Source of the DNA: a virus
Lineage: Duplodnaviria > Heunggongvirae > Uroviricota > Caudoviricetes
DNA length: 21,082 bases
Strand: one strand, 5' to 3'
Virus record (IMG/VR): IMGVR_UViG_2879759574_000006
This document shows, piece by piece, positions 9,890-11,623 of the stretch (positions within the stretch are counted from its first letter, which is position 1; each line of letters opens with the position of its first letter). Made by a program: the position numbers and the translations under genes. Under the pieces are notes generated by a model that worked only from the letters and a program-made list of their open reading frames with translations, searched no databases and was not told the origin of the DNA.

Positions 9890-10018
9890 TACTTATTTGG
9901 TGGACACCACTTTGTCTAATTCGTCAGATTCTGACCAGACGGTTCAGGCTGTACGCTGATATGACTTTCCGTGTCAAACCGGAATCTCTAATTTTGACGA
10001 TTTTCTTTTTAGGTTTAA

Positions 10019-10210
10019 TTCCCTGAGGGCGACGTAGCAGTAAATCCGACGGTGAATCACGCTGATATTCGCGGGTTGGATACCGCATTACAGAGGTCCG
10101 TCATATGAGCCTGCCACTTTCTTACGTCGCGAATCAGCTTTGTTCCGCCGTCGCCAAGCGCTAACGTGGGTTACTCTTGTACCGGGCTACGTCGCCTTCA
10201 GGGAACTGGT
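10019..10210. repeat. pair of ~22-24 bp imperfect inverted repeats flanking ~145 bp, immediately 3' of the IS110-family recombinase stop codon
   Basis: ttaattccctgagggcgacgtagc (10019-10042) versus gctacgtcgccttcagggaactgg (10187-10210); about 2 mismatches in the 22-bp core. Confidence 0.5.
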
Positions 10211-10222
10211 TATTCTCATTTT

Positions 10223-11397
10223 TTATTTGTGACATTGTGGTTGTTGTGCGACAGACATTGCTATTCGGCCCATATCCCAGATAAAACCCGCCAGCTCACG
10301 TGCAACAGCAACAATTGTAATATTGACATTCTTTCCTTTGGCCTGAAGTTTTCGATACCTCTTACAAAGCCTGAGTTGAGCATCCCATGCTCTGTCAATG
10401 ACGGGGCGGGGTAAATTTTCCTGCCTTTTTTGTATTGCCGGACTGATGCGTGCCGGATGACGGTAACTCCACGCTGCCTCGACCAATAGCTTTCTGGCAT
10501 AGCTGTTTCCGGCTTTGGTAATGCTGCCCTGATGTCTGCTTCCACCCGATGAATATTCTGATGGCGTGATACCAAACCATGACATCAGTTGTCGTGGATG
10601 TTCAAAACGGGTCAGATCACCCAGTTCAGAAATTAATCCAACCGCAGTAATAAACTGAATCCCTCGCATGGCTTGCAGCGCCTCTACTACCGGATACAGC
10701 CTCCATTCGGTAACGGCCTCCTTCAGGGCGGATTCCAGCCGTTCACATTGTGCCTGCCGGTCTTCTATTGTACGACGGTGTTCGTCAAAAGCTAATTGTC
10801 GCCAGGGACTTTCGAATGAGTATTTGCTGAGCCAGCGTCGGTGTGCAGGGCCCCAATCTGCTCGCCCTACATAATGGACCCCATGAACCAGAAGAAACGA
10901 TTTCAGACGTTGCCTTGCATGCCGTAAATCATCGCGGGCAGATGCCCATGCCCGGGCCAAATCCCGGAATGCCTCATCTTCAATGCCGGGTACGTAGACA
11001 GCAGAAAGATCTCCTGCACGCAGTGAACGCACAAGTCTGATGGCATCACGGCGATCGGTTTTAACCCGCTCCCCCGGTTTTTTCGGGATAAGTGAGGGGC
11101 GCAGACCATGCAGTCAAAACCGGATTTCACCAGCCGACGATAAAGTCCATAACCACAGGGCCCCGCTTCATAAACGATACTGACCTGCGATGACTTTGAC
11201 CTGAGACGTTTACAAAGATTCTGAATATCAGTAGGTGATGTGCCAATTTTACCCATCAGTTCAACAGGTTCTGAATTGATAGCATAAGCGACAGTAATCG
11301 ATTCTTTGTGAACATCTAACCCGACGTACAATGTGTTATTGTTGTTCATGCTGGCCTCCGTGGTGGAAATACCGGGGTGTAGCAACAGCTCACCCAT
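10223..11397 (-). pseudogene. IS110-family (DEDD-type) transposase/recombinase gene with a single frameshift
   Basis: N-terminal frame (10903..11397) has LYVGLDVHK...GYGLYR; C-terminal frame continues ...LIPKKPGERVKTDRRDAIRLVRSLRAGDLSAVYVP...; frames meet near 11093-11099, where one base appears missing; full length would be ~390 aa. Confidence 0.8.
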
Positions 11398-11623
11398 GCG
11401 GCTCTGACAACGATGTTAACCCGCGTTAAATATCCCACGTTGGCCAGCATCTGTCTCACGGAAAGTCATACTGCCTTACTGTTATCCGGTCGATAAAGTT
11501 ATTCACCATGATAATAACGAAATCCCGGCAGGTCTTTAAAACAGTTCCGTAATAAATATCCGGTTTCATTCTTATATGCCAGCAATGGCAGGGGTTCGCT
11601 CAACCTTAATTAAGGAGAAAAAC

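Follow-up and report, generated by a model that had tools for sequence, protein, structure and literature searches.

What occupies the middle of IMG/VR virus record IMGVR_UViG_2879759574_000006 (Caudoviricetes), and does it encode the RNA that would direct its own insertion? In this stretch of 21,082 nucleotides (nt), which we refer to as the window, a preliminary description had noted a frameshifted recombinase gene of the IS110/IS1111 family and had suggested that one of its non-coding flanks holds a guide RNA. Judged by its sequence, the element is the known insertion sequence (IS) ISSso6, a member of the IS1111 group of the IS110 family, and its 3' non-coding end very probably specifies an RNA of about 195 nt carrying two guides, V1 and V2, for GTA/AGCG(Y), the tip of the inverted repeats of IS66-family elements (the slash marks the insertion point here and below). 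The element is thus known and of a known kind, with some new detail on its target and on a second loop of the RNA. All positions are those of the window and are collected in Table 1.

The window copy is 1519 base pairs (bp) long, where intact copies have 1520 bp, and nucleotide comparison gives 99.7–99.9% identity to copies in E. coli genomes annotated as 'IS110-like element ISSso6 family transposase'. Full-length ISSso6 was also found in 56 plasmid records, mostly from Shigella. In an alignment of the window with three intact copies (L001–L003), the conserved block starts and stops at the same bases even though the flanks differ. The ends of the element were set from 12 or more ISSso6 junctions together with uninterrupted IS66-family ends, and they enclose the inverted repeats of the 3' flank, a point on which the preliminary description had made its proposal depend. 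The junctions read GTA/AGGCAGT... and ...ATC/AGCGT when compared with uninterrupted ISEc8 and ISEc22 ends, the shared AG leaving the cut ambiguous by 2 nt. Members of the IS1111 group have a 7-nt extension outside the left repeat and a 3-nt extension outside the right one (PMC11187229). ISSso6 shows the same asymmetry of the group (7 or 6 nt left, 3 nt right), with 7 nt on the left, 3 nt on the right and no target duplication. Its subterminal inverted repeats are perfect over 13–14 bp (9960–9973 and 11457–11470), compared with about 11–13 bp in the group, and both arms change together in relatives. The distribution of non-coding sequence is also that of IS1111 elements, with 264 nt downstream of the recombinase gene (9958–10222) versus 127 nt upstream (11350–11476). 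For comparison, 80 relatives were fetched from Burkholderiaceae, with recombinases 71–81% identical to that of ISSso6. The right repeat followed by ATC terminates every scorable relative, AG[GTA]CA[GC][TA] followed by the left repeat starts nearly all of those with a recoverable left end, and the right flanks begin mostly with AG or AA.

The recombinase itself was recognized through its domains. PF01548 (DEDD_Tnp_IS110, the N-terminal RuvC-like DEDD domain) scored 44.1 bits and PF02371 (Transposase_20, C-terminal) 84.3 bits, both above their cut-offs, and the NCBIfam model NF033542, 'IS110 family RNA-guided transposase', scored 273.9 bits against a cut-off of 140. The combination of a DEDD domain with Transposase_20 assigns the protein to the IS110 family, in agreement with the preliminary description. 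The gene begins, by annotation, with the AUG at 11347–11349 rather than at 11397 and ends with the TAA at 10223–10225; the intact ISSso6 protein (taken from L001) has 375 amino acids.

Where the element has inserted was read from its flanks. Joined to each other, they give GTA/AGCGTACAGCCTGAACCG, and the uninterrupted counterparts of this sequence are left ends of ISEc8 and ISEc22 (IS66 family), which start exactly with GTAAGCG (GTAAGCGTACAGCC) and are accompanied by 8-bp target duplications. Because the joined flanks match these uninterrupted ends, ISSso6 must sit between bases 3 and 4 of an IS66-family inverted repeat. There is no duplication at the ISSso6 site beyond the ambiguous AG. All of the ISSso6 junctions have the form GTA/.../AGCG(Y), save for the near variants GGCG, AGCT and AGGCG; most lie in left or right ends of IS66-family elements, and the orientation relative to the repeat is constant. 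Two copies are located away from annotated IS66-family features, one in a sopA pseudogene (GTA/AGCGCTGG) and one near nhaA (GTA/AGCGCTAACGG; L090 and L093). No paper stating the target of ISSso6 turned up in the literature library that was searched. The window itself contains six unoccupied IS66-type tips reading GTAAGCGY, at 5350–5360 (+), 7779–7789 (−), 8332–8342 (−), 13916–13926 (−), 14331–14341 (+) and 16760–16770 (−), versus 0.12 expected in 21 kilobases. Full ISEc22-like copies span 5350–7789 (+) and 14331–16770 (−), and the window is a nest of IS66-family elements in which ISSso6 occupies only one cognate site.

Downstream of the recombinase gene, the imperfect inverted repeat reported in the preliminary description was recovered with a core of 20 nt (10019–10038 and 10186–10205) that is 95% complementary, its arms 147 nt apart and extended by flanking pairs to 10016–10038 and 10186–10208. 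The description had placed its end 12 bp from the stop codon, and we measured 12–14 nt from the TAA. This repeat is the closing stem, P1, of a larger predicted structure. The 206-nt strand folds at z = −5.1 relative to shuffles, and RNAalifold, run on an alignment of 60 distinct relatives, returned P1, the short stems P2 and P3, a strongly covarying hairpin P4 and a second hairpin P5. In the proposed structure 98% of cells are paired, versus 36–40% when the partners are slid; 11 pairs have changed on both sides, and none of 500 shuffles matched the observed covariation score. Covariation is strongest in P4, where four pairs have changed on both sides (AU:22 and CG:22 at one of them, for example). 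Since G-U pairs are frequent (GU:47 at one pair and GU:24 at another), the structure appears to be that of an RNA of the recombinase-sense strand and not of a DNA cruciform. A minimum-free-energy fold of the single sequence recovered P1 and mispaired the interior relative to the comparative structure, and it was not used for the loops.

The preliminary description had named structure prediction and covariance-model searches of both flanks as checks on its proposal. A covariance model, R1, trained on 50 Burkholderiaceae relatives only, matched the tabulated RNA interval with 199.7 bits (E~2e-54); it had no other significant match on this strand, nothing in the 5' flank, and scored 31.5 bits for the same interval on the plus strand. 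By these models, the 3' non-coding end holds a conserved structured RNA backed by covariation, as a seekRNA or bridge RNA would be, and the guide RNA that the description had expected in one of the two non-coding ends lies in the 3' flank. This is where IS1111 members carry their guide: it follows the recombinase gene, and within it the match to the top strand lies 5' of the match to the bottom strand (PMC11187229). ISSso6, an ISfinder entry, is present in the data sets of both 2024 papers and is listed as an IS1111 element with a bridge RNA predicted in the right end (Durrant et al. 2024, PMC11208160 supplement).

The segments that tie this RNA to the insertion site are V1 and V2, which lie in the first internal loop, between P3 and P4, and differ from one relative to another. 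Reverse-complemented, V1 reads the final base of the left flank, then the core and then the right flank. Of its 6 non-core positions, an average of 4.36 pair with the element's own right flank, versus 1.53 with the flanks of elements with other guides, and V2 agrees with its own left flank at 3.54 of 5 positions, versus 1.66 for the flanks of other elements (permutation p≤1e-4 in both cases). Because flanking DNA is not inherited with the element, the association of guide and flank is functional rather than phylogenetic. The order of the guides, with V1 (top strand) 5' of V2 (bottom strand), is that published for IS1111 seekRNAs, and about 20 guide/target classes occur among recombinases as similar as those of the relatives, as natural reprogramming predicts. 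The guides of ISSso6 spell GTAAG and AAGCGCUAA, which together give GTA/AGCG(Y), the tip of the IS66-family inverted repeat. The sopA and nhaA sites fit V1 better than IS66 ends do, and V1 matches the L093 site at 9/9 positions. We also observed that the first two right-flank bases can be either AA or AG within one target class (L019/L039 versus L020/L026/L034–L040, and L025/L032/L041/L058 versus L037/L078), with the guide predicting AA and the donor core being AG. This dimorphism would fit strand exchange inside a 2-nt core with a donor AG.

Table 1. Features of the ISSso6 copy and of the interrupted IS66-family end, in window coordinates.
Feature	Position	Strand	Basis
ISSso6 copy	9958..11476	−	identity to annotated copies; ends from junctions and uninterrupted IS66 ends
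Left terminal extension AGGCAGT, 7 nt; first two bases AG, proposed crossover core	11470..11476	−	AG[GTA]CA[GC][TA] precedes left repeat in relatives
Left subterminal inverted repeat ATGACTTTCCGTG	11457..11469	−	repeat pair, 14 nt, 100% complementary to 9960–9973
5' untranslated region with conserved long-range stem, GCUGGCC (11442–11448) with GGCCAGC (11350–11356)	11350..11448	−	RNAalifold; single-sequence fold
Recombinase (transposase) gene, broken by 1-nt deletion	10223..11349	−	open reading frames (ORFs); alignment; protein families
Frameshift site, C4 run where intact copies have C5	11096..11099	−	alignment; same deletion in L090, L095, L096
Structured 3' RNA gene (candidate long seekRNA / bridge RNA), ~195 nt	10014..10210	−	covariance model R1; covariation
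P1, closing stem, 5' arm (one arm of the repeat first described)	10186..10208	−	RNAalifold; repeat search; covariation
Target guide V1, UUAGCGCUU, complementary to top strand A/AGCG(Y)UAA right of insertion point	10156..10164	−	flank-tracking permutation test
P4, inner hairpin of target loop	10129..10154	−	covariation
Target guide V2, ACGUAAG, identical to top-strand left flank plus core (..GTA+AG), complementary to bottom strand	10121..10127	−	flank-tracking permutation test
Second internal loop, candidate donor loop: 5' strand ACCUCUGUAA, hairpin P5, 3' strand AAUAUCAGCGUGAUUCA	10053..10097	−	conservation; base tracking
P1, closing stem, 3' arm (other arm of the repeat first described)	10016..10038	−	RNAalifold; repeat search; covariation
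TTGACA, candidate −35 box, 17 bp from left-end CAGTAT once ends are joined in a circle	9972..9977	−	sequence reading; TTGACA in nearly all relatives
Right subterminal inverted repeat CACGGAAAGTCAT (9961–9973) plus 3-nt extension ATC (9958–9960)	9958..9973	−	repeat search; relatives; junctions
GTA, first three bases of interrupted IS66-family (ISEc22-like) left inverted repeat	11477..11479	−	uninterrupted copies read .../GTAAGCGTACAGCC
AGCGTACAGCCTGAACCGTCTGG..., remainder of that IS66-family left inverted repeat	9932..9957	−	uninterrupted copies; ORFs
IS66-family genes following the left inverted repeat	tnpA 9488–9889; tnpB 9144–9491		ORF list

The second internal loop, which surrounds P5 provided that the invariant stem ACGG/CCGU holds, contains on its 3' strand AUAUCAG (10062–10068). 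This sequence repeats the five terminal bases of the right end together with the core and is kept in almost all relatives. In 35 of 41 distinct element/flank pairs, the base that follows it is the same as the first base of the target beyond the core (p≤2e-4). The 5' strand of the loop contains CUG, complementary to C/AG. The target-tracking base resembles the handshake guide that is reportedly described in the IS621 papers. Several candidates for further donor contacts were set aside. UACUGCU (10038–10044), the complement of AG-CAGTA in the left end, overlaps P1 and stays constant when the left extension changes; GGCAG in GUGGCAGG is invariant; and the base after AUAUCAG correlates with the third base of the left extension, yet neither as identity nor as complement, its identity match being the first target base. 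A variable segment at 10100–10110, GCUCAUAUGAC, matches the complement of the right-end junction GTCATATCAGC (9955–9965) at 10 of 11 positions; as it varies among relatives while the right end does not, we treated the match as lineage-specific or due to chance. In IS1111 members, the donor-binding bases often lie in a multi-loop (Durrant et al.). These sequence relationships support the donor half of a bridge-RNA model only in part, and we lean slightly towards the view that the 3' RNA of the ISSso6 clade is a full two-loop bridge RNA, in which loop 2 would read the right end, the AG core and one 'handshake' target base, and not a target-only seekRNA. Its programming against GTA/AGCG would make ISSso6 an RNA-guided parasite of another insertion-sequence family, IS66.

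Two further observations concern the make-up of the RNA. The motif AACCC(G/A)CG occurs twice in it (10066–10074 and 10164–10173, minus strand), in relatives too, in both cases immediately 5' of a guide strand (V1 or AUAUCAG), and may be a repeated protein-recognition element, one per loop. In a relative from Paraburkholderia humisilvae (L083), the target loop is missing in its entirety, P3, V1, P4 and V2 included, while P1, the second loop and both ends are retained; this is probably a dead or dependent copy.

Other explanations of the inverted repeat had been raised in the preliminary description. One holds that the arms are a palindromic target lying outside the element. They are long, and IS1111-family members often insert into palindromic repeats such as REP and attC (PMC11187229). 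However, both arms lie 57–250 bp inside the right end of every ISSso6 copy regardless of the flanking DNA, they carry compensatory changes in relatives from other genera, and the actual target, found uninterrupted elsewhere, is the IS66 tip GTAAGCG, which leaves next to no room for this interpretation. Just as hard to sustain is the proposal that the 145-bp segment between the arms is a small invertible switch. The recombinase family does include the Piv invertase (PMC11187229) and the arms are inverted repeats, but the segment was never seen inverted: a query with the inner segment flipped gave no full-length match in the 100 E. coli genomes matching it (5,426 searched), the best places fitting the normal orientation, and 60 of 60 distinct relatives are collinear with one orientation relative to the gene. 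The conserved structure might instead act as DNA, as a recombinase binding site or cruciform, or as a terminator or stabilizer of the mRNA, and parts of it, such as AACCCGCG, which is present twice, do resemble protein-recognition motifs. We regard this as improbable, given that the numerous G-U pairs would turn into A-C mismatches if the opposite strand or a cruciform were the functional form, that two loop segments track the flanking DNA on both strands, and that no T-run terminator follows P1.

The guide could also have been sought at the opposite end of the element, where the IS110-type element IS621 carries it. The 127 non-coding nt of the left end do have some structure (z = −2.7). In RNAalifold with 30 relatives, this consists of a 7-pair stem with a compensatory G-C to A-U change in 2 sequences, also seen in the single-sequence fold. 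Its 3' arm spans the spacer between the Shine-Dalgarno sequence GGAGG and the AUG, overlaps the last two Shine-Dalgarno bases and directly abuts the AUG. By the model, it looks like a translation control element and not a guide. The conserved 5' structure occludes the start-codon region and has no internal loops that track the flanks, the covariance model of the 3' RNA found no match there, and all flank-tracking segments reside in the 3' end; a guide RNA in the 5' end is therefore very unlikely. The preliminary description had extended the non-coding 5' flank to about 11560–11575. The left end proper is indeed non-coding, whereas 11477–11575 is outside both insertion sequences. Separately, we found that GCCAACGTGGGATA of the left end (11431–11444) is 86% complementary to UAACCCACGUUAGC of the 3' RNA (P3 and the start of V1; 10160–10173), and that CGCGGGTTA, a conserved segment of the left end, is likewise complementary to UAACCCGCG. 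Either 5'-3' pairing in a full transcript or chance could account for this.

The frameshift raises a different question. A single C is missing from a C5 run, as an alignment with the three intact copies shows, and its absence splits the gene into ORFs at 10903..11397 and 10223..11032; the deletion reported near 11095 adjoins the resulting CCCC and does exist in the sequence as given. The frameshift aside, the window protein is identical to WP_001063816.1, and this copy differs from intact ISSso6 by the missing C and one synonymous change. The deletion from C5 to C4 is found in four ISSso6 copies at four sites (the window, L090, L095 and L096, the latter three from the chromosome of E. coli FDAARGOS_944 and a plasmid of S. 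dysenteriae 93-119), and the deleted allele is rare: one of 53 E. coli records and one of 56 plasmid records match it best. Slippage at a hot spot, spread of a defective allele and homopolymer errors of long-read sequencing are all possible causes. That the frameshift is an assembly error and the copy actually intact is a serious possibility, although we consider it the less probable one. In its favor, besides the rarity of the allele, L095 and L096 carry additional single-base deletions, and the right flank of L096 contains a surplus G, as is typical of long-read errors. On the other hand, such copies are flagged as frameshifted by PGAP in finished genomes, and homopolymers are also genuine hot spots of slippage. 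We considered whether the four sites indicate trans-mobilization of the frameshifted allele and dropped the idea, since two of the copies have extra single-base indels and sequencing error or recurrent slippage would account for the pattern equally well. If the frameshift is real, the window copy makes no full-length recombinase. Mobilization in trans would still be possible, as neither its ends nor its RNA gene differ from those of intact copies.

Several points weigh against the interpretation of the 3' RNA as a guide for IS66 tips. V1 forms only 5 Watson-Crick pairs and 1 G-T pair with the ISEc22 end. An Rfam scan of 9000–12500 gave a best E of 0.41, with nothing relevant and no family at threshold, and the sole model that matches is R1 itself. 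The stem enclosing loop 2, ACGG with CCGU, is invariant and lacks covariation support, and RNAalifold preferred another partner for CGG. A left-end half of the donor guide was not found: beyond CUG, the 5' strand of loop 2 neither pairs nor covaries with the left extension. The recombinase is only about 25% identical to that of ISEc11, an experimentally tested element, with similarity confined to the C-terminal domain, and the ends of the RNA, its processing and its binding by the recombinase are drawn from the literature by analogy. Overall, we hold the interpretation to be very probable.

From what is known of IS1111 elements and IS621, the guide RNA would be excised from the recombinase transcript and bound by the recombinase. 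It would then align the target, with GTAAGCGTTAA or GTAAGCGCTAA as candidate cognate sequences, and the element ends, and strands would be exchanged at the AG core with no target duplication. Movement would proceed via a circle whose predicted junction, ...GTCATATC/AGGCAGTATGAC..., would create a promoter, TTGACA-17 bp-CAGTAT. Junction promoters are known for IS1111 members (PMC11187229). Two database copies show internal joins. In L094 (chromosome of E. coli FDAARGOS_943), the right end ...GTCATATC abuts ISSso6's own ATATC/AGCGTGATT within the guide-RNA gene, and in L091 (pINV, strain VL40) it abuts GTG/AGCTGGCGGG, close to the 3' terminus of the recombinase gene. Both joins look as if look-alike sites within the element had been used.

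For annotation, what had been an 'IS110-like pseudogene plus odd inverted repeat' becomes an element that is mapped throughout, from its ends and core to its guide-RNA gene, guides and target, and the inverted repeat needs no separate explanation. The gain for the field is modest and does not overturn current understanding: a guide-target pair is decoded for a clade without experimental work, IS66-family tips are added as a new target class, and a base of the second loop that tracks the target is pointed out. The approximately 20 naturally retargeted guides in close relatives would form a ready specificity data set that could guide the engineering of IS1111-type recombinases. If the interpretation is correct, ISSso6 uses IS66 copies as safe landing sites while disabling the ends it enters.

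Around the element, the window encodes an IpaH-type type III effector with LRR and NEL E3 ligase domains, a RecE-like exonuclease VIII fragment and two IS3-family integrases (genes at 1676–3391 (+), 11998–13164 (+), 16865–17704 (−) and 18582–19418 (−)). Its best plasmid matches are mosaics resembling Shigella virulence plasmids, the top one in Shigella dysenteriae, and none covers more than 46% of it. Just outside ISSso6, a promoter-like TTTAAA-18-TATTAT at 11511–11540 (−) is directed inward and could drive read-through of the recombinase gene and the 3' RNA.

Among characterized elements, ISSso6 most resembles ISEc11, ISPa11, ISKpn4 and ISPst6 (Siddiquee et al. 2024), with which it shares extensions of 7 nt and 3 nt outside subterminal inverted repeats, a long non-coding stretch on the 3' side of the gene, the lack of a target duplication, an internal loop whose top-strand match lies 5' of the bottom-strand match and overlaps it at the insertion point, a right-end −35 box that would serve a junction promoter, and natural retargeting among relatives. 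It differs from the tested IS1111 elements in its target and in its longer recombinase (375 versus 330–350 amino acids), and its clade is known from sequence alone. With the IS621 bridge RNA (Durrant et al. 2024; Hiraizumi et al. 2024), its RNA shares two loops, each with strands that would read the top and bottom DNA around a 2-nt core. In contrast to IS621, the RNA lies at the 3' rather than the 5' end, the guide order is reversed, the core is AG instead of CT, long subterminal repeats are present, loop 2 could not be shown to pair with the left end, and the recombinases are only weakly similar (E = 2e-5 over ~90 residues). The use of another mobile element's terminal inverted repeat at a fixed position and orientation is comparable to that of IS4321 and IS5075, IS1111-type elements found in the ends of Tn21, except that the element invaded by ISSso6 is an IS66-family insertion sequence, entered 3 bp from its tip.

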